Positions 2,853 through 40,480 of a stretch of DNA of 64,000 nt are shown here, in pieces. A program made the translations under genes and the position numbers. The DNA comes from an uncultured Verrucomicrobiota bacterium (GTDB lineage: Bacteria > Verrucomicrobiota > Kiritimatiellia > CAIQIC01 > Lenti-01): assembly GCA_964393515.1 (NCBI GenBank), contig CAYMTY010000006.1, positions 38,334 through 102,333 of the forward strand, read 5' to 3'. The notes beneath the pieces are model-generated. The model had not been told where the DNA came from. It made no database searches and worked only from the letters and a program-made list of their open reading frames with translations. How positions within the stretch are numbered: the first letter of the stretch is position 1; each line of letters opens with the position of its first letter.

Positions 2853-3844
2853 TCGGCCTCCGGGACGGATGCCGGAAAGGCCGGGCGCCGCAGCCGCAGG
2901 CCTTCCAGAACGGTGCTGGCCGCGCAGCGGCGGATCGTGTCGCGGGCCAACAGAAACGGATGCCGGGCCAGCATGCCGGCCAGATGCCTCCCGGCTGGAG
3001 CGAATTGCCGGCTGGCCCGCAACTGCCGGTTGTCGCCCAGCACCCGGGCCACCAGCGCTTTTTCCAGCAGGCCGATCTTCGCGGGCGGGACGGGATGGCG
3101 CCGGGCCCAGGCCAGGGCTTCCGCGACCACCCGCGAATTGACGGGCCGGAAGCGGCCCGTGAAGAGGGAGGACGAGTGATTTGCGGCGTGGATCCGGTAG
3201 ACGCAGATCGGCTCCGGACCGGCCGAAACGATGCGCGCCACGCTGGCCAGCTTAAGCCACAGGACCGCATCCTGGGCGACCCGCAGGCGGCTGAATCCGC
3301 CCACGGCCTCGAAGATGCGCTTACGCATCAGGATCGCATTGGCCGACCAGGCCAGACCGCCAAACAGCCGTTTTTCCAGAACGGCTTCCGGATCTTCGCA
3401 ATCGAAAACTGTCTGTTCCCGCACCCGGGGCGCCCGCCATTCCCCCCCGGGTTCGACCACGCGTTGGGTGGTTCCACACACGGCATCCACTTCGGGCGAG
3501 CGGTCGAGGATTTCTGCCGCCCGGGCGAATCGATGGGGATAAACATAGTCGTCCGCGCCCAGGAACGCCAAATAGCTTCCGGTGGCGAGGCGCGCGCCGC
3601 AGTTCAGCGTCCGGCCGACGCCGCGATGGGCGTGGTGTCGGTGGGCCACCGGCCGCACGCCGGGATGCCGCCGCGCCAGATCCCGGGCGATTTCGCGCGA
3701 GCGGTCGCGCGAGCCGTCATCCACAATGACGACCTCCAGGTCGGGATAGCCGGTCGCATACAGGGATTCAACCGCCTGTTCCAGGTACCGGGCGGCATTC
3801 CGGCAGGGGATGATGACGGAGATTCTGTTCGGGGTCACCGGCAT
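2849..3844 (-). CDS. Family 2 glycosyltransferase.
   Basis: MPVTPNRISVIIPCRNAARYLEQAVESLYATGYPDLEVVIVDDGSRD carries the GT2 DxD region. The true start was taken as the internal ATG at 3844, because the track ORF runs on into wzt. Confidence 0.75.
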   Translation of the reverse strand: MPVTPNRISVIIPCRNAARYLEQAVESLYATGYPDLEVVIVDDGSRDRSREIARDLARRHPGVRPVAHRHHAHRGVGRTLNCGARLATGSYLAFLGADDYVYPHRFARAAEILDRSPEVDAVCGTTQRVVEPGGEWRAPRVREQTVFDCEDPEAVLEKRLFGGLAWSANAILMRKRIFEAVGGFSRLRVAQDAVLWLKLASVARIVSAGPEPICVYRIHAANHSSSLFTGRFRPVNSRVVAEALAWARRHPVPPAKIGLLEKALVARVLGDNRQLRASRQFAPAGRHLAGMLARHPFLLARDTIRRCAASTVLEGLRLRRPAFPASVPEAD

Positions 3845-3855
3845 GGTCCCGGCCC

Positions 3856-5172
3856 TCACAGTTGCCGCCAGCGCGCCGCCGGCGCCAACAGCGGCGGCAC
3901 CCGGCCGGTCGGCGCGACATGCGGCGACGCCGATTCGACCCGGAACCAGAGGTGCCGGGCCCCGACCCCTACCGGCTGGAATTTCTCCAGCAGCACCACG
4001 TTGCAGTAGTAGGCGCCCGTGGCCAGCGGCAGCGCCCCCAGGGAGCAGCGAAACCGGCTGGTTCCCGCCGGGAGTGCCAGGGCGGTTTCCGCATCGGACC
4101 GGCACAGGCACAGGAAGACGCCCAGATGGGAATACAGGCCGATGTGCACGGCGAAATGCGCGAACGGCCGGGCGGCGGCCACTTCGAGTTCGAACTCCAG
4201 TTCTTTCCCGTCCTGGTAGATTTCGGAAACCGCGCGGCCGGCATCGCACAGACAGAAGCGGCGCAGCGCCAGCGCGCCGCCGCTCAAATCCCGGTATTCG
4301 TCCCCCGCCCCTTCGACGTGGCCGTCGAGATAGGCTTCGATGCAGGCGGCGGGCGGGCCCTGCTGGACGATGCGGCCGGCTTCCAGCCGCAGGGCCCGGG
4401 TGCAGAGCCGTTCCACGGCCGCCATGTTGTGACTCACAAACAGCACGGTCCGGCCGTGGCTGACCACGTCCTGGATCTTGCCGATGCACTTCTGCTGGAA
4501 TTCGGCGTCGCCCACCGCCAGCACCTCGTCCACGATGAGGATGTCGGGCTCGAGGTGGGCGGCCACGGCGAAGCCCAGGCGCACGACCATGCCGCTGGAG
4601 TAGCGCTTGACGGGCGTGTCGAGAAAGCGGGCGCAGCCGGAGAATTCGACGATTTCGTCCAGCTTGCCCCGGATTTCGGTCCGGGTCATGCCCAGGATCG
4701 CGCCATTGAGGTAAATGTTCTCGCGTCCGGTCAGGTCGGGATGGAACCCGGTGCCGACCTCGAGCAGGCTGGCGATCCGGCCGTCGATGCGGACTTCGCC
4801 CGCGGTGGGCGCCGTCACGCGGCTGAGGATTTTCAGCAGGGTGCTCTTGCCGGCGCCGTTGCGGCCGATGATGCCCAGCACCTCCCCCTGCCGGACCTCG
4901 AACTGGATGTTCCGCAAGGCCCAGACGTAGTCGGAGGAGAGGGCGGAGGGCGGAGAGCTGAAACCTGAAGCGATCGATGTTTCAGCTTTCAGTCTTCCGC
5001 CTTCCGCCCTCTGGTCCCGGATGTTCGCCTGGGTGACCTTGAGATAGGGATCGGGCCGGCCGCGGACCCGGTGCCACCAGCGGTTCAGGTCGTGGGACAG
5101 CGTACCGGTGGAAACCTCCCCCAGCCGGTATTGTTTGGAGAGGTTTTCGACCTGGATGATGACAGAACTCAT
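3856..5172 (-). CDS. wzt: ABC transporter ATP-binding protein for polysaccharide/O-antigen export (Wzt/TagH-like), with a C-terminal carbohydrate-binding extension.
   Basis: Walker A GIIGRNGAGKSTLL, signature YSSGMVVRLGFAVA and Walker B ILIVDEVLAVGD are present. There is a roughly 190-aa C-terminal extension of the kind seen in Wzt. Confidence 0.85.
   Translation of the reverse strand: MSSVIIQVENLSKQYRLGEVSTGTLSHDLNRWWHRVRGRPDPYLKVTQANIRDQRAEGGRLKAETSIASGFSSPPSALSSDYVWALRNIQFEVRQGEVLGIIGRNGAGKSTLLKILSRVTAPTAGEVRIDGRIASLLEVGTGFHPDLTGRENIYLNGAILGMTRTEIRGKLDEIVEFSGCARFLDTPVKRYSSGMVVRLGFAVAAHLEPDILIVDEVLAVGDAEFQQKCIGKIQDVVSHGRTVLFVSHNMAAVERLCTRALRLEAGRIVQQGPPAACIEAYLDGHVEGAGDEYRDLSGGALALRRFCLCDAGRAVSEIYQDGKELEFELEVAAARPFAHFAVHIGLYSHLGVFLCLCRSDAETALALPAGTSRFRCSLGALPLATGAYYCNVVLLEKFQPVGVGARHLWFRVESASPHVAPTGRVPPLLAPAARWRQL
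4935..5012. repeat. 78-bp imperfect palindrome (hairpin) embedded in-frame within wzt.
   Basis: GAGAGGGCGGAGGGCGGAGAGCTGAAACCTGAAGCGATCG is mirrored by CGATGTTTCAGCTTTCAGTCTTCCGCCTTCCGCCCTCTGG at about 85% arm complementarity. It encodes the linker ...AETSIASGFSSPPSALSS.... It shares the CTGAAAGCTGAAAG core with the cassette-1 inverted repeats. Confidence 0.6.
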
Positions 5173-5205
5173 GAGGGATGAGGGCTGAAAGCTGAAAGGT
5201 GAAGT
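5173..5205. repeat. Left inverted repeat of IVS-like cassette 1. It abuts the wzt start codon.
   Basis: GAGGGATGAGGGCTGAAAGCTGAAAGGTGAAG is matched at about 85% by the reverse complement of 5598-5634. Confidence 0.55.
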
Positions 5206-5222
5206 TGACTGAGAAACAACAT

Positions 5223-5590
5223 CTATTTTGCCTTAACCTTCTTGGCCATGGTTACGAATATGGCGATCAATTCATTGGATTCGTGCAGGAGCAACTCCAG
5301 ATTCGGCAAGGTGATTCCGCATTCCTCGCGCAGCAGTTCCAGCCATAACATGGACTCATCCGCCTCTTGTGTGCATAGCTCGATCTTGGCGACAAACTCG
5401 GCATCACTTCGCGCACGGGATGCCTCGCGATAGTTGGCTGCGACGGATGTGCCGGAACGCAGTGTTGCTTGCCCAGTATTTGAACTTCCGGCCGATTCTT
5501 GGGCAAGGTGCAATAAAGCCAGATCACCTTGGCCGCATACTGCTTGGTCCGGAGGCGAAAAGCCTCTTTCTTAGCCTCATATTCCGACAT
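5223..5590 (-). pseudogene. Four-helix-bundle protein (23S rRNA intervening-sequence protein family, TIGR02436/PF05635-like). The gene is disrupted by a 1-nt frameshift.
   Basis: The N-terminal half MSEYEAKKEAFRLRTKQYAAKVIWLYCTLPKNRPEVQILGKQ is in one frame (ORF 5267..5590). The C-terminal half ...GQATLRSGTSVAANYREASRARSDAEFVAKIELCTQ... is in another (ORF 5223..5513). Together they reconstruct the family hallmark L.SQ.RRAA.S...NI.EG. Local GC is low. Confidence 0.6.
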
Positions 5591-5597
5591 CAGCAGT

Positions 5598-5634
5598 TTC
5601 CTCAGCTTTCACCTTTCAGCCCTCAGCCCTCTAT
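5598..5634. repeat. Right inverted repeat of IVS-like cassette 1. It overlaps the wzm stop codon.
   Basis: The reverse complement AGAGGGCTGAGGGCTGAAAGGTGAAAGCTGAGGAAA matches the 5173-5205 repeat. Confidence 0.55.
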
Positions 5635-6545
5635 ACGGTATCCATGAAGGTCCGTTCCACGCGATTGAAGATGGCCACACCGGCCAGGAGCGCGACCACA
5701 GCAAAGGCGGCGCTGTAGGCCAGCAGGCCCCAGGAGAAAGTTCCCTGCCCGAGGAAGCCCAGGCGGAAGGTCTCCACGACGGGGGTCATGGGATTGATCA
5801 GGAGAAACCAGCGCCATTTCGCCGGGATGGCGGCCAGCGGATAGACCACCGGGGCGGCATACATCAGCAGGCGTACGCCGAACTCGAGCAGGAAGCGCAG
5901 GTCGCGGTACTTGGTGGTCAGCGAGCTGAACAGGATGCCCAGGCCCAGGGCCTGGGCGGCCATCAGGAGCACCAGCCCGGGAAACAGCCAAACCGCCCAG
6001 GTCAGTTCGATGTGCGCCCCGCGCCAGGCATACCAGGCCCAGAAGCACAGGAAGAACAGGAACTGCAGGATGAATTTCAACAGATGGGAGAGCGCGAGGG
6101 ACAGCGGCACGGCCAGCCGGGGAAAATACACCTTGCCGAACAGGTGCGCGTTGCCGATGAAGGTGTTGGCCGTCGCGGTGAGCACATTGGCGAAGTACAT
6201 CCAGACCACGTTGCCGCTCAGGTAAAACAGCATGCGCGGCAGGCCGTCGGTGCTCAATTTGGCGATGCTGCTGAACACGACGATGAAAATCAGCGTGGTC
6301 AGGAGCGGCTGGATCACGAACCAGGCCGGCCCGAGGATGGTCTGCTTGAACTGGGCCACGAAATCCCGGCGGACGAACATCGCCACCAGGTCCCGGTACC
6401 GCCAGAGATCGGTCAGGTGCAGGTCGAACCAGCGCACGCGCGGCCGCAGGACCAGCTGCCAGCGATGGTCCGCCGGCATGGGCGTCAGCGGTATCCCGGC
6501 CGGTGAAACGTCCCCGGCGGTTCCGGCAGCGGGAGCGGGATTCAT
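5631..6545 (-). CDS. wzm: ABC-2 type polysaccharide export permease (Wzm-like).
   Basis: Six hydrophobic segments. The ABC-2 fold is indicated by FVRRDFVAQFKQTILGPAWFVIQPLL and LFGKVYFPRLAVPL. Start was chosen at MNPAPAAG, where the ATGA overlaps the upstream stop. Confidence 0.8.
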   Translation of the reverse strand: MNPAPAAGTAGDVSPAGIPLTPMPADHRWQLVLRPRVRWFDLHLTDLWRYRDLVAMFVRRDFVAQFKQTILGPAWFVIQPLLTTLIFIVVFSSIAKLSTDGLPRMLFYLSGNVVWMYFANVLTATANTFIGNAHLFGKVYFPRLAVPLSLALSHLLKFILQFLFFLCFWAWYAWRGAHIELTWAVWLFPGLVLLMAAQALGLGILFSSLTTKYRDLRFLLEFGVRLLMYAAPVVYPLAAIPAKWRWFLLINPMTPVVETFRLGFLGQGTFSWGLLAYSAAFAVVALLAGVAIFNRVERTFMDTV

Positions 6546-7849
6546 GCCGCCGCCCGCCCTTCCTCCGCGGCGGGGCGGGTACCGGCCCACAGGCCGGCCC
6601 AGGCCGCCGCCAGCACAGCGATCAGCGGCATGCGCAAGGGAAAATCAATCAGGCTGTGCAGGCCCAGGGCGGCCAGGCCGAAGCCCAGCGCGCGCCGTTC
6701 GAGGCCGGCAAAGGAAGGGATTTCCATTCTGGGCGGGCCGCCGGATTTCCGGGCGGACAGCGCCAGGCCTGCGGCCAGCAGAGTCCAGAGCCCGCCCAGC
6801 AAGCCGAATTCGGACAGGAACTGGACGGGTTCGCAATGCGCATGCAGGACCATGCGTCCGGCGTTGACCGGCGCCGCATAATAGGGATGCACGATGGAAA
6901 ACGTGCCCGGCCCCGTGCCCCACAGCGGCGCCTCCTGCCAGGCCTTCAGGGTTTCGGCCAGGATGCCGCCGCGGAAATGCCATTCGCGCAGGAAAGCGGC
7001 GGGTTGGCGCCAGCTCCGGGCCAGGGTGACCGCCGCCCAGCCGATCAGGCCGGCCGCGGCCAGCCAGGCCAGCGCCCGGGCCGGCCGCGATCTCGGCGCT
7101 CCGGCGAAGGGATGCTGGCGGACCACCTGGCGGCAGAGGAGCACGTGGGCCGGCACCAGCAGCGCCAGCACCGCCACGCCTGCACGCGACCGGGAGGCCA
7201 CCACGGACGCAGCCAGCACCACGGCCCCCAGCAGCAGCAAGCCCGCTGGACTGGAAGGCCGCCCCGCCTGCACGGCGCTGAACCGGGCGCGGGCCGCCAG
7301 GGCCAGCGCCACCGGCAGGACCAGGTTCGCAAACGCGGCGAAATGGTTTTCATTCACGAAAATGCCGGTGTATTCGTAGATGGGAAAGCGCCGGGGCTCG
7401 AGCCGCTGGGCCAGCACCAGCAAGGCCATGGCGACAGCGCCCAGAACCACCGCCAGCAGCGCACCGCGGATTTGCCGCCCGGAAAGCTGGAACGCCAGGG
7501 CATAGGCGCCCAGCATGGCGGTCGCCACGCCCAACGCCGCCCAGGTCTCCGACGGACAAGCCGAACCCGGCAGGAAGCGCACATGGCCAACCGGCAGCAG
7601 GCCGGCGGCAGCCGTCCATTGGTGGGTGGCATTCCCGGCATAGAGCGCCACCAGCCCCAGCCCGGCAGCCGCGGCCAGCCCAATGCGTCCCCGGCAAGTG
7701 CCGCAGGCCAGGCCTGCGGCCAGCGCCCCCCCCCCCAGCGCCGGCAGCAGCCAGGCGCCCCAGGCCGGCGCCGCAAACGGCACCACCGCGGACGCGCCCA
7801 GCAACAACAGGAGCAGCGCCCCGAACCATGGACAACGGTCGGCTTTCAT
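6542..7849 (-). CDS. O-antigen ligase / Wzy_C family polytopic membrane protein.
   Basis: Multiple TM helices and a periplasmic loop carrying the Wzy_C-like stretch NENHFAAFANLVLPVALALAA. The ATGA start overlaps the wzc stop. Confidence 0.6.
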   Translation of the reverse strand: MKADRCPWFGALLLLLLGASAVVPFAAPAWGAWLLPALGGGALAAGLACGTCRGRIGLAAAAGLGLVALYAGNATHQWTAAAGLLPVGHVRFLPGSACPSETWAALGVATAMLGAYALAFQLSGRQIRGALLAVVLGAVAMALLVLAQRLEPRRFPIYEYTGIFVNENHFAAFANLVLPVALALAARARFSAVQAGRPSSPAGLLLLGAVVLAASVVASRSRAGVAVLALLVPAHVLLCRQVVRQHPFAGAPRSRPARALAWLAAAGLIGWAAVTLARSWRQPAAFLREWHFRGGILAETLKAWQEAPLWGTGPGTFSIVHPYYAAPVNAGRMVLHAHCEPVQFLSEFGLLGGLWTLLAAGLALSARKSGGPPRMEIPSFAGLERRALGFGLAALGLHSLIDFPLRMPLIAVLAAAWAGLWAGTRPAAEEGRAAA

Positions 7850-9996
7850 CCGTCCGCACGGGATTCCGGGCCGGCGGGCGCGGAATGATAGTACCGGTAG
7901 GTGTAGCCGCCATAGCGGCGGTAATAATAATAGTTGGCCATCGACTTGAAATTGACCCCGTTCATGATGCAGCCCAGGCAGGGGGTGCCGCCCTCCTGGA
8001 GCTTGAGGATCGCATGGCGGGCGCCCAGGCTGTGGGTGACGCCGTAGCGAACGACAAACAGCACGCCGTCCACGTTGGGCAGCAGCACGAGGGAATCACT
8101 GACGCCCAGGATCGGCGGGGCATCGACGATGACATGCTGGTACTGTTCGCGCGCCTCCCGGAGGAAATCGACGAACGGCTGGCGGCCGAGCAGTTCGGCG
8201 GGGTGCAGGGGCAGGTGCCCCGAGGAAATCACGCCGAGGTTCGGCACATCCTGCTGAAGCAGGACCTCCCGCCAGCGGGTCTCGCCTTTGAGGACATCGG
8301 CCAGGCCGATCGCGTCCGGTTGCGTGTCGAAAATTCTTGTCAGCACCGGCCGGCGCAGGTCGGCGGCGACCAGCAGGGTGCGGCGGCCGTCCTGGGCCAG
8401 GCTGATGGCCAGGTTGGTCGAAACCAGGGACTTCCCCTCCCCGGGACCGGCACTGGTGATCATCAGGACGGGTGCGTTGCGGATCTCCTCCTTGAGCAGC
8501 AGGCTGGCGCGCAGCGTGCGGAAGGATTCGGCCACCTCGCTGGTCTGCCGCAGATGGGCGACCATGCCGCGCTCCCGCACGGTCTTGTCGCCGATCAAGG
8601 GCACCGTGGCCAGCACGGGCAGGCCCAGCAGGCGCTCGACCTCCTCATTGCGGCGGAACCGGTGGTCGGCATAGTAGAACAGGAAAATCGCGCCGATGCC
8701 GAGGATCAGGCCGAAGGCGGCCCCCCGCACCACGGCCTGGCCCAGCCGCGGCCGGAACGGGGCCTTCGCGGGCCGCGCCTCCTCCACGATGCGGATGATG
8801 TCGGCCGGCAGGGTCTCGGAAATGCTGGCCTCCTTCATGCGGGCGATCACGGCCTGGTGGATCTCGCGGTCGGCCTCGACGTTGAGCTTGAGCTCGTTGT
8901 AGCGCACCAGCTTGCGGTCCAGGTCGAACGCCTCCTTCTCCTGCTTCTTCAGGGCGGCCAGGAGATTCCGCTCCCGCTCGACCAGGACCTCGTAGCGGTT
9001 CTGGAAGGCGTACAGGGCATCGTCGCAGGCCTGTTCAAACTGCTTCTGGAGTTTCTTCTCCTGTTCAAGCGCCTGCTGCAGGTCGGGATACTGTTCGCGG
9101 TAGCGCTGCTGCAGGCGGTCGACCTCGCGCTGCTGCTCCTGGACCCGCTGGTGCGCCGCCTGCACGTTGGCGTCGCTCATCACGGCCGCGATCTTGCTGG
9201 CCGGAACGTTGGTTTCAATCTGCGCCTGGATGGACTTCCAGGCCGTCTCGGCCTGGATGCGCTCCGTCTGGGCTGCAGTCAGCGCCTGGTTCAACGCCTT
9301 GAGCTTGTCGATAACGATGTTCTGGTCCTCCTCCAGCGAAACCGAACCGGTCTCCTCGCGGTAGTGCTGCAGTTCGGCCAGGCCCTTTTCGAGCTTGTCG
9401 CGGTATTCCTCGGAGCGTTCGCGCAGCCACTCGACCGCCTCCAGGGAGGCGTTCATGCGCATGTCGAGGTACTGCTGGATGTAGGACTGGGCGAGGGCGT
9501 TGGCGAAAGCGCTGGCGGCCTGCGGATCGGCATGCTCGACCGTGATGTCGATCATGCGGGTCTTCTCCACCGCCTTGATCGCCACCAGCCTGCGGGCGGC
9601 CTCGGCCTTGTCCTCGGGGGTTTTGCCCCCGGGCAGGAACCCGGGCTGCTGATCCAGCCCGCTCCGTTCCAGGGCCGCCGCCATCATGTTGCGGCTATGG
9701 AGCGCATTCAGGTGCGTGTTGAAGAACTCGAGGCTGCGGGTGTTGTAGGACAGGACATCCTGGAAATTCAGGATCTTGGGGATCTGCGCCTCCACCAGCA
9801 GAGTGGCCGTGCTGCGGTACATCGGCGTCTGGCGGCGGGCGTTGAGGAAAAACAGCAAAAAGACGACGGCGGCCACCGACAGGCCCAGCCAGGCGCGTTC
9901 CATGAGGATGGCCACGGCCTCGCGCCAGTCGGGAAACTTGGAGAGGCTGTTTTCGCCGCTGTCGCCGCCGTTCGCAATGTAGGGGGTCTTGGTCAT
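7846..9996 (-). CDS. wzc: Polysaccharide co-polymerase with a C-terminal BY-kinase domain (Wzc/GumC/EpsG-like, PCP-2a).
   Basis: N-terminal Wzz-like domain with two TM segments, long coiled coils, a Walker A motif (MITSAGPGEGKSLVSTNLA) and a tyrosine-rich tail (YYYRRYGGYTYRYY). Confidence 0.85.
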   Translation of the reverse strand: MTKTPYIANGGDSGENSLSKFPDWREAVAILMERAWLGLSVAAVVFLLFFLNARRQTPMYRSTATLLVEAQIPKILNFQDVLSYNTRSLEFFNTHLNALHSRNMMAAALERSGLDQQPGFLPGGKTPEDKAEAARRLVAIKAVEKTRMIDITVEHADPQAASAFANALAQSYIQQYLDMRMNASLEAVEWLRERSEEYRDKLEKGLAELQHYREETGSVSLEEDQNIVIDKLKALNQALTAAQTERIQAETAWKSIQAQIETNVPASKIAAVMSDANVQAAHQRVQEQQREVDRLQQRYREQYPDLQQALEQEKKLQKQFEQACDDALYAFQNRYEVLVERERNLLAALKKQEKEAFDLDRKLVRYNELKLNVEADREIHQAVIARMKEASISETLPADIIRIVEEARPAKAPFRPRLGQAVVRGAAFGLILGIGAIFLFYYADHRFRRNEEVERLLGLPVLATVPLIGDKTVRERGMVAHLRQTSEVAESFRTLRASLLLKEEIRNAPVLMITSAGPGEGKSLVSTNLAISLAQDGRRTLLVAADLRRPVLTRIFDTQPDAIGLADVLKGETRWREVLLQQDVPNLGVISSGHLPLHPAELLGRQPFVDFLREAREQYQHVIVDAPPILGVSDSLVLLPNVDGVLFVVRYGVTHSLGARHAILKLQEGGTPCLGCIMNGVNFKSMANYYYYRRYGGYTYRYYHSAPAGPESRADG

Positions 9997-10071
9997 AGAC
10001 TATAGGCGGTAGGCGGCGGACTGTAGGGGAAAGAAGTCATAGGGATTAGGCTGCAGGGGGTGGGCTGTAGG
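9997..10071. repeat. Left inverted-repeat region of IVS-like cassette 2 (ATAGGCGGTAGGCGG / GGCTGTAGG motifs).
   Basis: CTATAGGCGGTAGGCGGCGGACTGTAGGGG ... GGGCTGTAGG pairs with the reverse complement of 10452-10489 (GACGATAGGCTGTAGGCTGTAGCCG). Confidence 0.5.
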
Positions 10072-10074
10072 TTT

Positions 10075-10432
10075 TCATTTGTTGCGCATGGAACGAATCA
10101 GCGCTCCAAGTACTTTTTCAGATTCCGGCATTTTCAAGTCGCCCTCACAAGCGATCTTTTCGCCAATATATCCCAACCGCAGGGACAACCCGAACTGGTA
10201 ATGCAGTTCTCGCAAGGAACCAAATGCCACTTTGAGAAAATGCCGGTATTCGGCTTGGCTCTCATATGCATATCCCTCCACAATGTTGGATACAACTGAA
10301 ACCGCCGCCCGCCTCATTTGCGAGGTCAAACCAAACAACTCTTCTTTGGGCAAACTCCCGCGTGATCCGGTAGACCAAAATCGCAATCCCGTCAGCCAGT
10401 TTAAAGGCCCTGAGCTTCGTATGATCCCGCAT
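10075..10432 (-). pseudogene. Four-helix-bundle protein (23S rRNA IVS protein family), second copy. Disrupted by a 1-nt insertion.
   Basis: N-terminus MRDHTKLRAFKLADGIAILVYRITREF in one frame. C-terminus ...PKEELFGLTSQMRRAAVSVVSNIVEGYAYESQAEYRHFLKVAFGSLRELHYQF... in the +1 frame (ORF 10075..10386). The extra base lies in GAGTTTGCCCAAAG. Confidence 0.6.
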
Positions 10433-10451
10433 TGCTTTCCTAACGTCTTCC

Positions 10452-10489
10452 CGGCTACAGCCTACAGCCTATCGTCTACAGCCTTCTTC
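10452..10489. repeat. Right inverted repeat of IVS-like cassette 2.
   Basis: CGGCTACAGCCTACAGCCTATCGTCTACAGCC is the reverse-complement partner of the 10003-10030 region. It ends at the wza stop codon. Confidence 0.5.
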
Positions 10490-11155
10490 CTAGAACAGCA
10501 CCTGATCCACCGTGATGACATCGTTGGGTTCAAGCGGGACATCCTTTTCCCCGTCCCTGCTGCGCAGCAGGTCCGACACCCGGATCCGCAGAGTGTCCTG
10601 GTGCCCGTCGGGCGTGCGCCGCACAATGCGGACGCGGTCCGGGCTGGCCAGTTCGGTGAAGCCACCCGCCCCGGCAATGGCCTGTAGCAAGGTCATGGAA
10701 CTGCCAAACGGTAGGGGGTAGACCCCGGGCTTCTTCACCTCGCCCAGCAGCACGATCTGGGAGCTCTGGGTGGACACCATCTTGAGGATGACTCGCGGGT
10801 TGACCAGATAGTCCTTGGCCAGACGCGCGGTCAGCGCCGCCTCGGCTTCCTTGACCGTCTGGCGGTCCAGCAGCACGGTCCCCAGCAGCGGATGGCGGAT
10901 TTCCCCCTCCGGGCTGATCTGGAACACGCCGGACAGCTCGGGCTCGCGGTAAACCTGGATATCGATCTCGTCGCCCGGCTGCAGGAGGTATTCAGGGGGG
11001 ATTCCGGCCGCGGCGGGCGGCGCCGCCGGCGCGGGTTGCGCCCGCGGCTGCGCGGCCGCCGGCGGGTGGGCGCAGCCGGCGGACATCCCCGCCAGCCCCA
11101 GGCTCAGGACGGCCGCGACTCCGCACCGCCGGATTGTGGTCATACGCGATTCCAT
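10490..11155 (-). CDS. wza: Polysaccharide export outer-membrane lipoprotein (Wza/OPX-like: Poly_export plus SLBB domains).
   Basis: Lipobox-like signal (...LAGMSAGC). Also IQVYREPELSGVFQISPEGEIRHPLLGTV and DVITVDQVLF, typical of the Poly_export/SLBB domain. Confidence 0.8.
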   Translation of the reverse strand: MESRMTTIRRCGVAAVLSLGLAGMSAGCAHPPAAAQPRAQPAPAAPPAAAGIPPEYLLQPGDEIDIQVYREPELSGVFQISPEGEIRHPLLGTVLLDRQTVKEAEAALTARLAKDYLVNPRVILKMVSTQSSQIVLLGEVKKPGVYPLPFGSSMTLLQAIAGAGGFTELASPDRVRIVRRTPDGHQDTLRIRVSDLLRSRDGEKDVPLEPNDVITVDQVLF

Positions 11156-11212
11156 GGGGTGATGGATAGCAAAACCGCGGGGGAAAGGGAATGCCGGAAT
11201 TGCCGCCGGGAG

Positions 11213-12508
11213 CTAGTAGTTCCAACTGGCGCGCAGGGTCCAGCGTCCGTATTCATAGGAAGTGGCCTCCTGCAGCTCGGCATCCGCGTCCTGGCTGCCA
11301 TCGCGCTGCATGTAGGAATAGGCTAGGCCTAGGGAGAAGTGCTGCTTGGTCCACCAGTCCACGCCCAGCGTGAACCCCCAGTAGTTGTCGCTCCGCCCGT
11401 CGAAGGCCAGGGGCGCCGCCCCGGCCGCCGGCTCCGCCTCTCCGCCGTGGTAGTCGATCCGGCCGAGCGTGACGGACGCGTTGCCGCGCAGGCGTTCAGA
11501 GAACAGCCGGCGGGCCGCGGAGACCACCACGCCCTGGTCCACCGTGTCCAGGCCCGCCTCGTCGGCGGCCGGGCGCACATCCGCATAGAGCTCGGCGCTG
11601 AAGGCGGTCAGCCCGAACGGGCTGCTGCGGGCTTCGAGCGCGGCGATCCAATGCTCGAACGAGCCGCGCGCTTGGTCGTCGTAGGTCCGCCACATGTAGC
11701 CCACCCGGCCGGACGAGGAGAACTTGGGCGACTGCTTGCCGCGCACGCCCAGCGCCAGATCATGGTAGTCGGCGCCGCTGGCGGCATCGGTTGCATCCCG
11801 GGGCTCGTCGCGGCCGAGGCCGGCCTGCACGAATCCCTCGCTTTTGGGGGTCAGGCGGTGGTACAGCCGGCCGCCGCCGTAATAGCGGTCGTAATCCACG
11901 TAGTCTTCCGCGTCGAAATCGTGCCGTTCGGCGCGCCCCAGGCCCCCCAGGCTGGACTTGCCTGAGATCCGGTGCTCCGCGCTGAGATCGGCGAAATAAT
12001 CCCGCTTGAGGACGCGCGCGCCGACCACGGCATCCAGTTCCTCCAGGTGGCGGTAGCCGAACTGGCCGTTGATCTGGCTTTTAGGCGTGCGGTAGACGGC
12101 CCCCAGGCGCAGCAGGTGGCTGGGCCGATCGCTGACCTCCTCCTCGCTGTTGTACAGCGGGATGCCCAGGCCGTAGTCGGCGTAGAGGTGGTTGTCCGCC
12201 GGCCGCCCCCAGATGGCCAGCAGGCCGGGGGCCAGGTTGACGGAAGTCGCCGCGGTCCCGTCCTCCGGATCGAGGAACACGTTGTCCTCGTGCGAGACCG
12301 ACAGCGTCACCCGCGGCAGGAGCGCCCCGGTCTTGACCGGCATGTAGAACGGATCGAAGACCGCGCCGCCCTGATCCAGGTAGAAGGCGGTCTCGACGCC
12401 GCGGGTATAGAAGCCCGAAGCATAGCTGTCGAGCGCGGCCCATACGGACAGGGGCGCCGCTCCGGCGGCGCCCGCCAGCAGGAACCAGATGAGGATCCGT
12501 TGCCTCAA
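11213..12508 (-). CDS. Putative outer-membrane beta-barrel protein. Family unassigned.
   Basis: Signal peptide (L)RQRILIWFLLAGAAGAAPLSVWA, alternating beta-strand pattern and a C-terminal aromatic ...RASWNY. The start was set at the TTG at 12508, just after the upstream stop. The track ORF to 13405 overlaps the hydrolase gene. Confidence 0.45.
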   Translation of the reverse strand: MRQRILIWFLLAGAAGAAPLSVWAALDSYASGFYTRGVETAFYLDQGGAVFDPFYMPVKTGALLPRVTLSVSHEDNVFLDPEDGTAATSVNLAPGLLAIWGRPADNHLYADYGLGIPLYNSEEEVSDRPSHLLRLGAVYRTPKSQINGQFGYRHLEELDAVVGARVLKRDYFADLSAEHRISGKSSLGGLGRAERHDFDAEDYVDYDRYYGGGRLYHRLTPKSEGFVQAGLGRDEPRDATDAASGADYHDLALGVRGKQSPKFSSSGRVGYMWRTYDDQARGSFEHWIAALEARSSPFGLTAFSAELYADVRPAADEAGLDTVDQGVVVSAARRLFSERLRGNASVTLGRIDYHGGEAEPAAGAAPLAFDGRSDNYWGFTLGVDWWTKQHFSLGLAYSYMQRDGSQDADAELQEATSYEYGRWTLRASWNY

Positions 12509-14406
12509 CGGTTCGCCTCCAGGTAGCGGAAGCCCTGGATCAGCTCGATTTCCCGCCGATTGTACGGGGTGCCGTCCGGCTCCAGCACGCCCTGCTGCCA
12601 GAGATCCGGATCCTTTTCCGACCGGAAGTGGGGCTGCTGAATTTCCAACTGGGTCTTGCCTTGCACGAGGCCGCGGTTGAACCAGCCCACCCGGTAGGCG
12701 GAGAACAGCGGCAGCACCTTCTCGAAGTCGTTGCCGGTCTGGCGCATCAGCCAGTCGGCGCAGATGATCGGGCGGTTGTAGCGCTGGAGCAGAAGCAAAC
12801 GCGCCTCGATGCTTTCGACATTGTCGAAGCTCTGGAAGGTGATCAGGTCGGAGCGTTCCAGCTTGCGGGTGGCCATCGCGCTGCCGAACTCGCGCCAGGC
12901 GGCGACCGCCAGCGGCTGGGAAGCCTCGACCGAGCGGGCCCAGTTGAAGGTCTGGTCCATCAGCGGCAGGGATTCCTCCCACAGCCCGCTGTTGCCGGCG
13001 GTGTTGTAGAGGTCCCAGTAGAGGATCCGGCCGTCGCGCTTGAACCGGCCCATCACGTCCTTGACGTATTTCTCCAAGGCGGACCATTGCGCGCGGTCGG
13101 TGACGGCGGCATGGGCCGGGCTGGGCACCCAGCGGCTGTTGTACTGGCCCGGCACCGGTTCGGGCTGGGGCCCGGGCTGCGGCGGCTGGCCGGCCAGGTC
13201 CAGGTCGTCGAACAGCACCGGCACGATGCGCAGCCCGTGCTTGCCGGCCAGGTCGAGCAGCTGGTCCACGCGCTTCAGGAAGCCGTCGGGATCGGCCTGC
13301 CACACCACGAACTGCAGCGGGACGCGGATGGCCGTGTAGCCGAGGCTGCGGGCCCAGCTGAGCTCTTCGTCGATCGTGTCGGGATCGAAGGTGTCCGCCA
13401 TCCACATTTCCACGGAGTTGACGGCGGTGCGGGGAATGTAGTTGACACCCTTGATCGTGCCGATGTTTTCAAACCAGTTCCAGATGCGCAGCTCCTCCCA
13501 GCGCCCGCCCGGCGCCCCCGCCCCCGGCCGGGGCAGCCTCGCGGGCACGGCCGAGGCTACGGACGGACGGATCGTCGGGCTGGCGTCGGTGACCAACGCG
13601 CCGGAATCCAGCGTGACGATGTCGGAGGACAGCCCCAGGTACTGCGCCAGCCCGTCCCGGTCGAAACCGCGCTCGCGGTAGATGAAGGGCTCCAGGTCGG
13701 CAAAGAACGTGTTGCACAGTTCGAAGTAATGGAGTTCGGGATCGGTCGCCACGCCCTCCTCTTGCAGGTCGCTGCGCTCGGTCTCCGGATCGAACGTCAT
13801 CCGGGCGGCTTCGCCGGCCTGCAGTTCGGTGCGATTGCCGCCGCGGGGCACGACCGCCAGTTCGTAGGCATCGCTGTAGACGTCCCAGCCCTCCCGGCCC
13901 TTCTGCGCCACGACGAACGAACCGCCCTGCGCCTCGACAGTGCCGGCCGGGGTCTCGATCCGGATGTCGAGCGTCGGAGACGGCGGTCCAGCCTGCACGC
14001 GCATCCGGCCCTTGTGGAGCTGGAGGTGGATGCGCCGGACCAGATCGTCCTCGGTCCGGGGCAGGCCATCGGCGGTATGCCGCAGCTGCATGATCGTAAA
14101 CTCGGTGTTGGGGGCCACGCACAGGATCGCTCCTGGCGAGCAAACCATGCACAGCCGGCCGTCCCTGCCGGTCATTACGCGGGTACTCTCGCCCACCGCC
14201 GCGCCTTCCAACAGCCCCCGCGTCTCCTGGCGCCCTTCGTGCACGGGTGCGGTATAGACCCGGGCGGTGGCCCGGCCAGCCTGGGCCGCCACGACGGCCT
14301 CCCCCGTCGGCGGCAGCGCGCGGGCCGGCAGCGCCAGCAGCCAGCCGAAGGCCAAGCCAGCCATGGCCAACCGGCCGGTCCGGAAAACGATGCTTGTCTT
14401 GTTCAT
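12505..14406 (-). CDS. Secreted protein with an N-terminal FecR-like beta-sandwich and a C-terminal TIM-barrel glycoside-hydrolase-like domain (GH5/cellulase-superfamily-like).
   Basis: Signal peptide MNKTSIVFRTGRLAMAGLAFGWLLALPARA. Glycosidase-like stretches IKGVNYIPRTAVNSVEMW and YTAIRVPLQFVVW. A canonical NEP catalytic motif was not found, so enzymatic activity is uncertain. Confidence 0.4.
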   Translation of the reverse strand: MNKTSIVFRTGRLAMAGLAFGWLLALPARALPPTGEAVVAAQAGRATARVYTAPVHEGRQETRGLLEGAAVGESTRVMTGRDGRLCMVCSPGAILCVAPNTEFTIMQLRHTADGLPRTEDDLVRRIHLQLHKGRMRVQAGPPSPTLDIRIETPAGTVEAQGGSFVVAQKGREGWDVYSDAYELAVVPRGGNRTELQAGEAARMTFDPETERSDLQEEGVATDPELHYFELCNTFFADLEPFIYRERGFDRDGLAQYLGLSSDIVTLDSGALVTDASPTIRPSVASAVPARLPRPGAGAPGGRWEELRIWNWFENIGTIKGVNYIPRTAVNSVEMWMADTFDPDTIDEELSWARSLGYTAIRVPLQFVVWQADPDGFLKRVDQLLDLAGKHGLRIVPVLFDDLDLAGQPPQPGPQPEPVPGQYNSRWVPSPAHAAVTDRAQWSALEKYVKDVMGRFKRDGRILYWDLYNTAGNSGLWEESLPLMDQTFNWARSVEASQPLAVAAWREFGSAMATRKLERSDLITFQSFDNVESIEARLLLLQRYNRPIICADWLMRQTGNDFEKVLPLFSAYRVGWFNRGLVQGKTQLEIQQPHFRSEKDPDLWQQGVLEPDGTPYNRREIELIQGFRYLEANR

Positions 14407-14444
14407 GGCTTGCTATACCTTTTTTCCAGAATCCGAACCCCGCC

Positions 14445-14882
14445 ATGTCCGATTCCCGGGAAATCGTCGAAAGCCTGCTCCAGCAGCACACGACCGTTAC
14501 CTTCCAGGCCCAGGGCCTTAGCATGACACCCGCCATCCGCGCCGGCGACCTGGTCCATGTCCGGCCGGCCGCAGGCCCGGATCTGCGCCGGGGCAGCGTC
14601 GTTCTGTACCGGAACCATGGCCGCCTGATCCTGCACCGGCTGGTGGCCTGCGACCGCCAGGCCGCCCGCGTGCGAACGGCCGCGGATGCCGCGCTGGCCG
14701 GCGGCGACTGGATCCCCGTCGCGGACATTCTGGGCGTGGCCGAATCGGTCCGCCATGGCGACCGGCTCCAGCGCCTGGACACGGCGCCGGCCCGACTGGC
14801 CGGCCTGCTGCGCTATGCCCTGCGGCCGCTGCGCCGCTTGGCAATCGCCCTGAATCGCCGTTTGAAACCACTGGTCCTGTAG
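14445..14882 (+). CDS. Small soluble S24/S26-family serine peptidase-like protein (signal-peptidase/LexA-like fold). It appears to be of the Ser/His type.
   Basis: GLSMTPAIRAGDLVHV carries the nucleophile motif. The position normally occupied by the KR(V/L) general base reads RLILHRLVA, as in S26B/SEC11-type enzymes. No N-terminal TM helix. Confidence 0.55.
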   Translation: MSDSREIVESLLQQHTTVTFQAQGLSMTPAIRAGDLVHVRPAAGPDLRRGSVVLYRNHGRLILHRLVACDRQAARVRTAADAALAGGDWIPVADILGVAESVRHGDRLQRLDTAPARLAGLLRYALRPLRRLAIALNRRLKPLVL

Positions 14883-14936
14883 GGGCTCAGCTTGCTGAGC
14901 CCGGGATCTAGGCTGAGCAAGCTCAGCCCCTACAAG
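14883..14936. terminator. Twin GC-rich hairpins between convergent genes. Candidate bidirectional terminator.
   Basis: GGGGCTCAGCttGCTGAGCCC and GGCTGAGCaaGCTCAGCCC lie immediately after the TAG of the S24-like gene, 50 bp before the HprK-like gene stop. There is no U-tract. Confidence 0.35.
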
Positions 14937-14986
14937 TCGTGAATCCAATCGGCCACCCCTTGGATATTGAATATTGAATCCCATTT

Positions 14987-40339: not shown

Positions 40340-40480
40340 GACCTCTTTTCTGTAAGGAAAAATATGCCATGAATTCATAGAATGTCAATATTATATTATT
40401 GCATTATTAGCTTTATGTTAGTTTTATATTAATACCTTTTAACACTTGTTTTTTATCATTCTAACTGCATTTCTCTCAAC
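40340..40480. promoter_or_regulatory. Strongly AT-rich (about 20-25% GC) 140-bp island immediately upstream of giant gene 2.
   Basis: GAAAAATATGCCATGAATTCATAGAATGTCAATATTATATTATTGCATTATTAGCTTTATGTTAGTTTTATATTAATACC.... This is a large drop from the flanking 70% GC. Confidence 0.35.

Follow-up and report, generated by a model that had tools for sequence, protein, structure and literature searches.

The window analyzed here comprises 64,000 nucleotides (nt) of DNA from an uncultured Verrucomicrobiota bacterium. Positions 9997–10489 of this window, which form the exact intergenic gap between the polysaccharide export genes wza and wzc, probably represent a small, widespread, and selfish mobile cassette in decay. 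The cassette is of the intervening sequence (IVS) type, like the inserts that fragment 23S ribosomal RNA (rRNA) in some bacteria, and lies here between two protein-coding genes of an operon. The gap holds, on the minus strand, a four-helix-bundle (4HB), Avd-like gene of the family PF05635/TIGR02436, and this gene is flanked by short tandem repeats of opposite orientation. An initial annotation, made from the letters alone, had placed a 4HB gene here and called the insert IVS-like. Its coordinates and the gene are correct, LTSQMRRAAVSVVSNIVEGY lying within the open reading frame (ORF) 10075–10386 of the minus strand, and the name is borne out by the family match, the disrupted S23p/4HB ORF, and the pairing arms. 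The cassette sits between wza and wzc and not at helix 9, 25, or 45 of a 23S rRNA. Its parts are given below in the direction of the gene; repeats were found by Tandem Repeats Finder (TRF), as inverted-repeat pairs I1–I6, and by autocorrelation.

10452..10492, minus strand: upstream (5′) arm, TAGGAAGAAGGCTGTAGACGATAGGCTGTAGGCTGTAGCCG on the gene strand, made of TAGGCTG-type heptads (TRF, pairs I1–I6, autocorrelation)
10433..10451, minus strand: spacer between arm and start codon, including AGGAAAG, which weakly resembles a Shine-Dalgarno motif (direct reading)
10352..10432, minus strand: 5′ segment of the 4HB pseudogene, codons 1–27, MRDHTKLRAFKLADGIAILVYRITREF (three-frame translation; tblastn gives two pieces in two frames)
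about 10351, minus strand: extra base, GAG TTT G CCC AAA (frames compared with the conserved ...REFPKEELFGLTSQ... of homologues)
10075..10350, minus strand: 3′ segment of the 4HB pseudogene, PKEELFGLTSQMRRAAVSVVSNIVEGY...MRNK followed by a stop (also read from PKEELFGLTSQMRR), in a frame other than that of codons 1–27
10040..10074, minus strand: proximal downstream (3′) arm, AAACCTACAGCCCACCCCCTGCAGCCTAATCCCTA on the gene strand (inverted repeat I1)
9997..10039, minus strand: distal, duplicated downstream arm, ...CCCCTACAGTCCGCCGCCTACCGCCTATAGTCT on the gene strand, abutting the wzc ATG (inverted repeats I2–I4)

The 3′ ORF alone matches PF05635 with 84.3 bits (cutoff 33.8), and the 118-residue protein obtained by repairing the frameshift matches TIGR02436 with 96.3 bits (cutoff 24). 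Homologues of the repaired protein are likewise 118 residues long, share about 75% identity, and align over 99–100% of the length; a search with it returned 5,882 matches at E ≤ 1e-10. The closest solved structure is PDB 2GSC (E = 2e-19), followed at a distance by 2RLD (E = 0.004). Each was deposited with five chains; the resemblance is one of sequence, and a pentameric 4HB fold of the protein is putative. The presence of the gene thus stands, but it is not intact: an ORF of about 115–125 residues is missing from the gap, the reading frame being split in two by an extra G at about 10351 that lies outside any homopolymer run. In addition, of 74 columns with a conservation of at least 90% among 120 homologues, five are altered in the copy (C54Y, R56Y, R64H, E67K, and I68V), compared with 1.7 such columns on average in intact homologues (95th percentile 4). 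Because of the frameshift and these lost residues, the gene is seen as decaying. It is a pseudogene, or the frameshift could be a sequencing error.

The full upstream flank reads TAG-GAAGAAGGCTGTAGACGATAGGCTGTAGGCTGTAGCCG on the gene strand, with TAG (10490–10492) being the stop codon of wza and, at the same time, the opening triplet of the repeat arm. TRF reports CTACAGC in 4.3 copies at 10455–10484, and the period of seven is also found by autocorrelation. The whole downstream flank is AAACCTACAGCCCACCCCCTGCAGCCTAATCCCTATGACTTCTTTCCCCTACAGTCCGCCGCCTACCGCCTATAGTCT, directly followed by the ATG of wzc (9994–9996). The I1 repeat of the proximal arm spans 32 nt with 75% complementarity to 10461–10492, and pairs I2–I4 of the distal arm include a 19-nt pair with 89% complementarity. 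Both copies of the downstream arm end in GTCATAG, and this 7-nt direct repeat (9992–9998 and 10036–10042) brackets the distal arm. The inner GTCATAG provides the ATG of a mini-ORF of 15 codons (10040..9993), whose TGA overlaps the wzc start as ATGA. The motif GGCTGTAG occurs five times in the window, four of these in the two flanks with opposite orientation (0.67 expected). The 14-mer TAGGCKGTAGGCKG, with up to two mismatches, has eight matches, six of them in the flanks (1.1 expected). The repeats, which had been predicted to pair, do so when folded: the upstream flank is paired with the downstream flank in the minimum free energy (MFE) fold as well as in the centroid fold, with the MFE fold using the distal downstream arm. 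The duplex of the flanks has −50.4 kcal/mol compared with −34.4 ± 4.2 kcal/mol in dinucleotide shuffles (z = −3.8, reached by 1 of 1000). The insert is hence bordered by complementary ends forming a stem around it, as in an IVS, and these ends are also terminal inverted repeats of the kind found in miniature inverted-repeat transposable elements (MITEs) and other transposons with such termini.

The history of the gap becomes apparent by comparison with 12 related loci from metagenome-assembled genomes labelled Kiritimatiellia, Verrucomicrobiota, Lentisphaerae, and similar, in which Wzc is 56–75% identical and the gene order is kept. A wza orthologue is present in all of them, and the distance from the wza stop to the wzc start is only 6–35 nt in 12 of 12, so the cassette is a lineage-specific insertion. 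It is also of atypical composition, with about 50% GC between neighboring genes of 64–69% in a window of 68%. Judged from sequence, the comparison shows that the cassette entered the wza–wzc spacer in the lineage of the window as a DNA insertion, present sporadically among relatives. The short spacers of the relatives contain GGAG or AGGA, and the wzc ATG of the window has no Shine-Dalgarno-like motif directly upstream. In a strain-level look at the gap cassette, the Wza of the window was not on record. The nearest relative found (L123, Wzc 81% identical at the amino acid level) carries a scaffold gap of 100 N (3791–3890) exactly at the wza/wzc junction. An N run, either a scaffold or a masked gap, also lies inside the downstream heptad array of a related cassette from Desulfonatronum (L116, about 2960–3070), and many contigs with 4HB genes end near them. 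Heptad arrays seem to break assemblies and could, thus, bias a census.

The same gene and repeats recur as one unit in other genomes. Homologues of the 4HB protein of the window at 59–74% identity were collected from 80 metagenome loci, and flanks of 100 nt were inspected on either side. TAGGCTG is enriched 112-fold in the upstream flank, with 74 occurrences upstream vs 10 downstream, and CAGCCTA is enriched 144-fold in the downstream flank, with 94 downstream vs six upstream. At least two TAGGCTG-type units stand upstream in 62 of 78 loci, and at least two CAGCCTA-type units downstream in 59 of 78. The motif recurs with unchanged polarity at the loci L013, L021, and L027, and homologues on unrelated contigs sit between cheA and cheB, bipA and an ABC-F gene, or an SCP2 and an aminotransferase gene. 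The canonical layout is GTAACTNCTCAGGTAGATAG, heptads, TAGGAGGAAATT, ATG to stop, heptads, and CTAAACAACCTGAGTAGTTAC, amounting to about 440–520 bp; in such copies, the last heptad merges into the Shine-Dalgarno motif as TAGGAGGAAATT-ATG. Both termini of the outer inverted repeat GTAACTNCTCAGGTAGATAG...CTAAACAACCTGAGTAGTTAC were found in 15 loci. Five of 14 testable canonical copies are flanked by direct repeats of 8 nt or more (14, 11, 9, 8, and 8 nt); the length of such repeats, ranging over 6–14 nt in the canonical relatives, is not fixed. As a length of 7 nt is attained by just 1.6% of mismatched flank pairs, canonical copies are regarded as DNA insertions with duplications of variable length. 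Taken at the level of sequence, this shows that the 4HB gene and its polarized repeats travel together across phyla as one mobile unit. The upstream arms carry stops in all three frames in 56 of 78 loci, compared with 5% in a control consisting mostly of coding sequence. Both neighbors are co-oriented with the cassette in 44 of 58 loci, as determined by a crude ORF method. At the cheA/cheB locus L013, the 4HB gene is framed by arrays of about 480 and 350 nt (1980–2460 and 2866–3215) whose units contain AGGCTGTAG. Each L013 flank contains both orientations and is, thus, a self-contained hairpin; hairpins also lie within the flanks of L038 and L052.

The window contains a second such element in the same operon, which runs on the minus strand in the order wza, 493-nt gap, wzc, Wzy_C-like gene, ABC-2 permease gene, cassette 1, and ABC ATPase gene.

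10490..11155, minus strand: wza, upstream host gene, polysaccharide export outer-membrane protein (Pfam Poly_export and SLBB)
7846..9996, minus strand: wzc, downstream host gene, chain-length regulator/tyrosine kinase (Pfam GNVR and AAA_31, P-loop)
5631..6590, minus strand: ABC-2 permease gene
5173..5633, minus strand: cassette 1, with a 4HB gene of another subfamily (hb1) between the ABC-2 permease and ABC ATPase genes; GGGCTGA/AAGCTGA and TTTCAGC heptads
3856..5172, minus strand: ABC ATPase gene
4933..5017, minus strand: cargo-less hairpin in frame within the ABC ATPase gene; GGCGGAA twice, GACTGAA, and AGCTGAA against TTCAGGT, TTCAGCT, and CTCCGCC twice (heptads by TRF)

Cassette 1 is frameshifted as well, one base missing at about 5465–5474 (GGC AAG CAA CA CTG), so both 4HB genes of the operon are broken and both hairpins persist. 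Its protein shows no change at any of 61 conserved subfamily columns. The arms form a 30-nt inverted repeat with 90% complementarity and a duplex of −53.4 kcal/mol (z = −5.8). An intact orthologue of 122 residues (P0121, 80% identity) with near-identical arms is found at this junction in L108/L123, a closer relative. The same heptad family accompanies homologues of about 71% identity from Lentisphaerae and from an isolate, Desulfonatronum thioautotrophicum, in which the cassette lies between the E and F genes of a type II secretion system (T2SS). The gap cassette was described as a second, independent insertion, and this is supported: the two proteins share less than 30% identity, each has relatives bearing its own repeat, and the wza–wzc site is empty in 12 of 12 loci. 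The repeats of the two cassettes were also called unrelated. Each subfamily indeed has a separate heptad, GGCTGTA in the gap vs GGCTGAG/AGCTGAA in cassette 1, but a lack of any shared sequence does not hold, since both have a 7-nt period and a common GCTG core, summarized by the pattern [GA]GCTG[TA][AG].

A preference of the cassettes for certain sites, which had also been put forward, has partial support, from the recurrent use of one junction. The permease/ATPase junction, one of roughly twenty junctions per locus, is used by three different cassettes: the hb1 type in the window and L108; a 4HB gene in L001, 53% identical to hb1 and 63% identical to proteins elsewhere; and the cassette of L012. 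By contrast, the wza/wzc site is occupied only in the window. Instead of true targeting, homologous recombination through the conserved genes on either side could have exchanged the cassettes. In L012 (14500–15050), this junction harbors a GxxExxY gene (TIGR04256, 148 bits) with inverted arrays of 9-nt units, GCGAATTAG three times and AATTCGCCA three times. Among the window and the 12 related loci, no cassettes were found beyond the two window copies and those of L001 and L012, and viral contigs gave nothing for hb1 or GxxExxY. Selection for such elements in export operons, the further suggestion of the initial annotation, is not supported because the insertion contexts are diverse: cheA/cheB, bipA/ABC-F, SCP2/aminotransferase, T2SS E/F, cas6/cas4, nrdB/nrdA, and 23S rRNA.

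The hairpin at 4933–5017 is the longest inverted repeat of the window and is translated as ...QRAEGGRLKAETSIASGFSSPPSALSS... within the ATPase. The closest ATPase orthologue, that of L012 (73% identity), lacks 17 residues at this position. The hairpin looks like a solo, MITE-like derivative of cassette arms in a variable loop of the protein.

The class extends to plasmids. A tblastn search against plasmids returned 19 records, 16 of them cyanobacterial, and inverted arrays of short period were present in all seven copies examined, meaning six of six plasmid copies of Cyanobacteria and Gemmatimonadota and one copy in an Azospirillum 23S rRNA gene.

Nostoc edaphicum: nrdB/nrdA, on the opposite strand; GTAGGGA eight times and TCCCTAC five times
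Calothrix: beside an integrase gene; GGGTGTA
Pseudanabaena galeata plasmid pPg_01 (NZ_CP112875.1, 46268–46627; L127): cas6/cas4; AAAGCTA
Geminocystis: AAA ATPase gene/ParB/RepB gene; GGGAAAA/TTTTCCC
Stanieria: hypothetical-protein gene/putative transposase gene; CTGCCNT
Gemmatirosa: unannotated record; octamer CTCCTGCC
Azospirillum lipoferum 4B plasmid AZO_p2 (NC_016586.1, about 14347–14748; L130): inside a 23S rRNA gene; CAGAGGA... and ...TCTTCTG

The host gene of the Azospirillum copy matches the large-subunit rRNA model of Rfam with 2,144 bits, and its 4HB ORF has no coding sequence entry in the gene table of PLSDB, which omits RNA genes. The ORF is bounded by CCGAAGCTGCGG and GGTAGCGGAGCGTTCCGTAAGCC, surroundings that we take to be the helix-45 region of 23S rRNA, and its arms form a duplex of −72.7 kcal/mol. 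With its inverted heptad arms, this genuine, classical ORF-bearing IVS shares its architecture with the cassettes of operon spacers. Flanking inverted repeats are, thus, borne by 4HB genes elsewhere too, namely in the metagenome loci, the relatives of hb1, the plasmids, and Azospirillum, whereas their absence would have spoken against the cassette. The figure legend in which an association of a "23S rRNA IVP" with CRISPR adaptation modules is named (PMC10910872) could reflect hitch-hiking as seen at cas6/cas4.

The following mechanism is proposed. The unit consists, over about 450–500 bp, of (TAGGCTG)n, a Shine-Dalgarno motif, the gene of a 118-residue Avd-like 4HB protein, and inverted (CAGCCTA)n. 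It may be transcribed within the wza–wzc mRNA, whereupon the arms would pair into a stem of about 30–40 bp around the ORF and bring the wza stop beside the wzc start. By analogy with the IVSs of rRNA, this stem is a putative substrate of RNase III, and since it would be cut, the element could burden the host only little when residing in operons or rRNA genes. As each protein subfamily has its own heptad, the intact protein may act on its own repeat arrays. Candidate residues determining this specificity were sought and rejected, since the heptad type (CTGTAGG vs CTGAAGG) tracks protein clades and is confounded by descent. The variable length of the duplications argues against a single classical transposase and proves nothing. 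A more far-reaching and rather doubtful proposal sees in TIGR02436 4HB genes, as a general rule, the entire gene content of minimal mobile elements that are autonomous. Herein, an Avd-like pentamer would recognize the heptad arrays of its own subfamily as DNA or RNA and drive insertion without a classical transposase. It could do so via a reverse transcriptase or via factors of the host, in keeping with duplications of variable length. The IVSs of 23S rRNA, many cyanobacterial STRR-like arrays, and some "CRISPR-associated" IVS proteins would then form one class.

Several observations weigh against the gap being a decaying IVS-type cassette of this kind. The z-score of the fold of the whole region is only −1.85. 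The energy of the flank duplex is matched by 30% of random flank pairs, the window being rich in GC, so that only the composition-matched shuffle is significant. Apart from the internal GTCATAG pair, the window copy shows no clear target duplication and no outer terminal inverted repeat. Pairing of the arms favors the sense strand in 39 and the antisense strand in 39 of 78 loci (Wilcoxon p = 0.45); upstream, there are 32 occurrences of TAGACTG vs 20 of CAGTCTA downstream, and a test for asymmetry of G–U vs A–C gave no signal. As there is no preference for the sense strand, the complementarity could serve DNA rather than RNA. Co-orientation with the neighbors is frequent and not obligatory, the Nostoc nrd copy being on the opposite strand. 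Movement must be rare, because identical proteins always sit in one genomic context. Finally, the frameshifts of both cassettes could be sequencing errors.

The strongest competitor is a DNA-only, MITE-like transposon, in which arrays and outer repeats are sites for a transposase acting in trans, the 4HB gene is a passenger, and the RNA stem is a by-product. Terminal inverted repeats together with flanking direct repeats, pairing without strand bias, the cargo-less hairpins (4933–5017 and the flanks of L013, L038, and L052), and the occurrence of another cargo, GxxExxY, in the same architecture are all as expected from it. However, direct repeats varying between 6 and 14 nt are unusual for one transposase, and none is seen beside the examined operon-spacer copies (the Stanieria plasmid copy has a putative transposase gene as neighbor). 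Moreover, purifying selection acts strongly on the ORF in different phyla, with about 75% identity and 74 columns at least 90% conserved, which is unexplained for a passenger, and the stems of classical IVSs are processed as RNA (PMC4990558). We consider this explanation unlikely.

A hairpin of benefit to the host, setting the wza:wzc ratio through mRNA processing, stability, or termination–reinitiation with a dispensable 4HB gene, is improbable. It would account for the pairing arms kept by both operon cassettes despite their frameshifted ORFs, for the position of the arms from the upstream stop codon to the downstream ATG, for wzc and the ATPase gene of the window being without the Shine-Dalgarno motif that relatives have, and for the ATGA overlap at the end of the mini-ORF. 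The same operon nevertheless exists without a cassette in 12 of 12 relatives, and the arms of the gap cassette, only 73–89% complementary, as well as its decaying protein fit neutral erosion.

An orphan avd left by a diversity-generating retroelement is very improbable. PF05635 proteins are homologous to Avd (PMC10053308), and the repaired protein weakly matches NF033474 (DivGenRetAVD); the 23.5 bits, however, are far under the cutoff of 80. Neither a reverse transcriptase nor a pair of template and variable repeats adjoins the gene, the scan for reverse transcriptases covering its neighborhood, with wza and wzc as neighbors. Likewise, the homologues in 100 loci stand alone between unrelated housekeeping genes. 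Chance or compositional repeats beside an ordinary small gene, for which it speaks that random flank pairs often reach a similar duplex energy in a window of 68% GC, are already refuted by motif counts exceeding those of shuffles and by the polarized motif, enriched 112- to 144-fold at 80 unrelated loci.

As a mobile cassette of the IVS type, the element is most closely comparable with the ORF-bearing IVSs of 23S rRNA from Leptospira, Coxiella burnetii (S23p), and Brucella (PMC4990558). They share the PF05635/TIGR02436 ORF, a length of about 430–490 nt, complementary borders in a long stem, a GC content below that of the host, and a sporadic distribution implying horizontal acquisition; the Azospirillum IVS adds inverted heptad arms to these. 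Unlike them, the window copy lies in an mRNA spacer, its ORF is frameshifted, and excision by RNase III is proposed by analogy only. For the IVSs of Coxiella, Leptospira, and Salmonella, the inverted-repeat stems are cut by RNase III and the insert is excised with no rejoining of the transcript, the S23p ORF has no assigned function, and an origin from mobile elements has been proposed and never resolved (PMC4990558). Avd itself (bAvd, PDB 4DWL) is a homologous 4HB protein, the related 2GSC and 2RLD being pentameric, whereas the window gene stands alone between host genes and stays far below the NF033474 cutoff. MITEs and elements of the repetitive extragenic palindrome (REP)/RAYT type are similarly small and intergenic, have terminal inverted repeats or hairpins and cargo-less derivatives, and resemble the relatives of the cassette in their direct repeats; unlike them, the cassette has a conserved non-transposase ORF, tandem 7-nt arms, and direct repeats of variable length. 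The short tandemly repeated repetitive (STRR) heptamers of cyanobacteria are intergenic tandem arrays of heptanucleotides as well, and such arrays bracket 4HB genes on the examined cyanobacterial plasmids. Their definition, however, comes from heterocystous cyanobacteria and covers units of different sequence, and the 4HB link is an observation on five plasmid loci. GxxExxY cassettes match in the use of the permease/ATPase junction and in their inverted short tandem arrays and differ by another fold family and a 9-nt unit, with L012 as the one example.

Already known are the protein family, its occurrence outside of rRNA, and the stems of IVSs. The literature searched, with incomplete coverage and, hence, uncertain priority, contains no account of polarized heptad arrays, their subfamily specificity, the outer terminal repeat, or flanking duplications, nor of an architecture shared by operon cassettes and true IVSs. 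The 4HB "IVS protein" family is among the most abundant uncharacterized small-gene families in bacteria, one search returning about 5,900 and another about 8,000 distinct proteins. Where ORF-bearing rRNA IVSs come from and what they are for are questions that date back to about 1990. Polarized, subfamily-specific inverted arrays that always accompany the gene, whether it sits in an operon spacer or in the genuine IVS of a 23S rRNA, together with the direct repeats flanking part of the canonical relatives, turn this "hypothetical protein" into a defined mobile unit. In practice, the cassettes split operons and can be misread as operon members (e.g., at cas6/cas4), they break metagenome assemblies, and their hairpins may end up translated inside genes. 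The window copy is dead and of modest consequence itself, apart from a possible residual effect of the hairpin on the expression of wza and wzc; its interest lies in the class that it reveals.

Some minor observations concern the surroundings. Rfam detects no known RNA family and no rRNA in 4800–11300, with sub-threshold, microRNA-like matches on the hairpin of the ATPase gene. The gap cassette contains no promoter-like site and no same-strand terminator, and PADLOC gives no defense-system match. Low-GC islands at 17.3, 28.9, 40.2, 47.4, and 60.9 kb were considered as further 4HB cassettes and rejected by phmmer. The island at 40.2 kb (40350–40470, 33% GC within 68%), flanked by the minus-strand gene of a 2,497-residue surface protein and a plus-strand sensor kinase gene, is an AT-rich divergent intergenic region, probably with promoters, and not a cassette. 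At 14878–14934, a near-perfect hairpin with 24-nt arms (TGTAGGGGCTCAGCTTGCTGAGCC and GGCTGAGCAAGCTCAGCCCCTACA) between convergent ORFs is followed by TTGAATA in 2.9 copies (14960–14979). This hairpin contains the motifs CTGTAGG and GCTGAGC and is possibly a bidirectional terminator.

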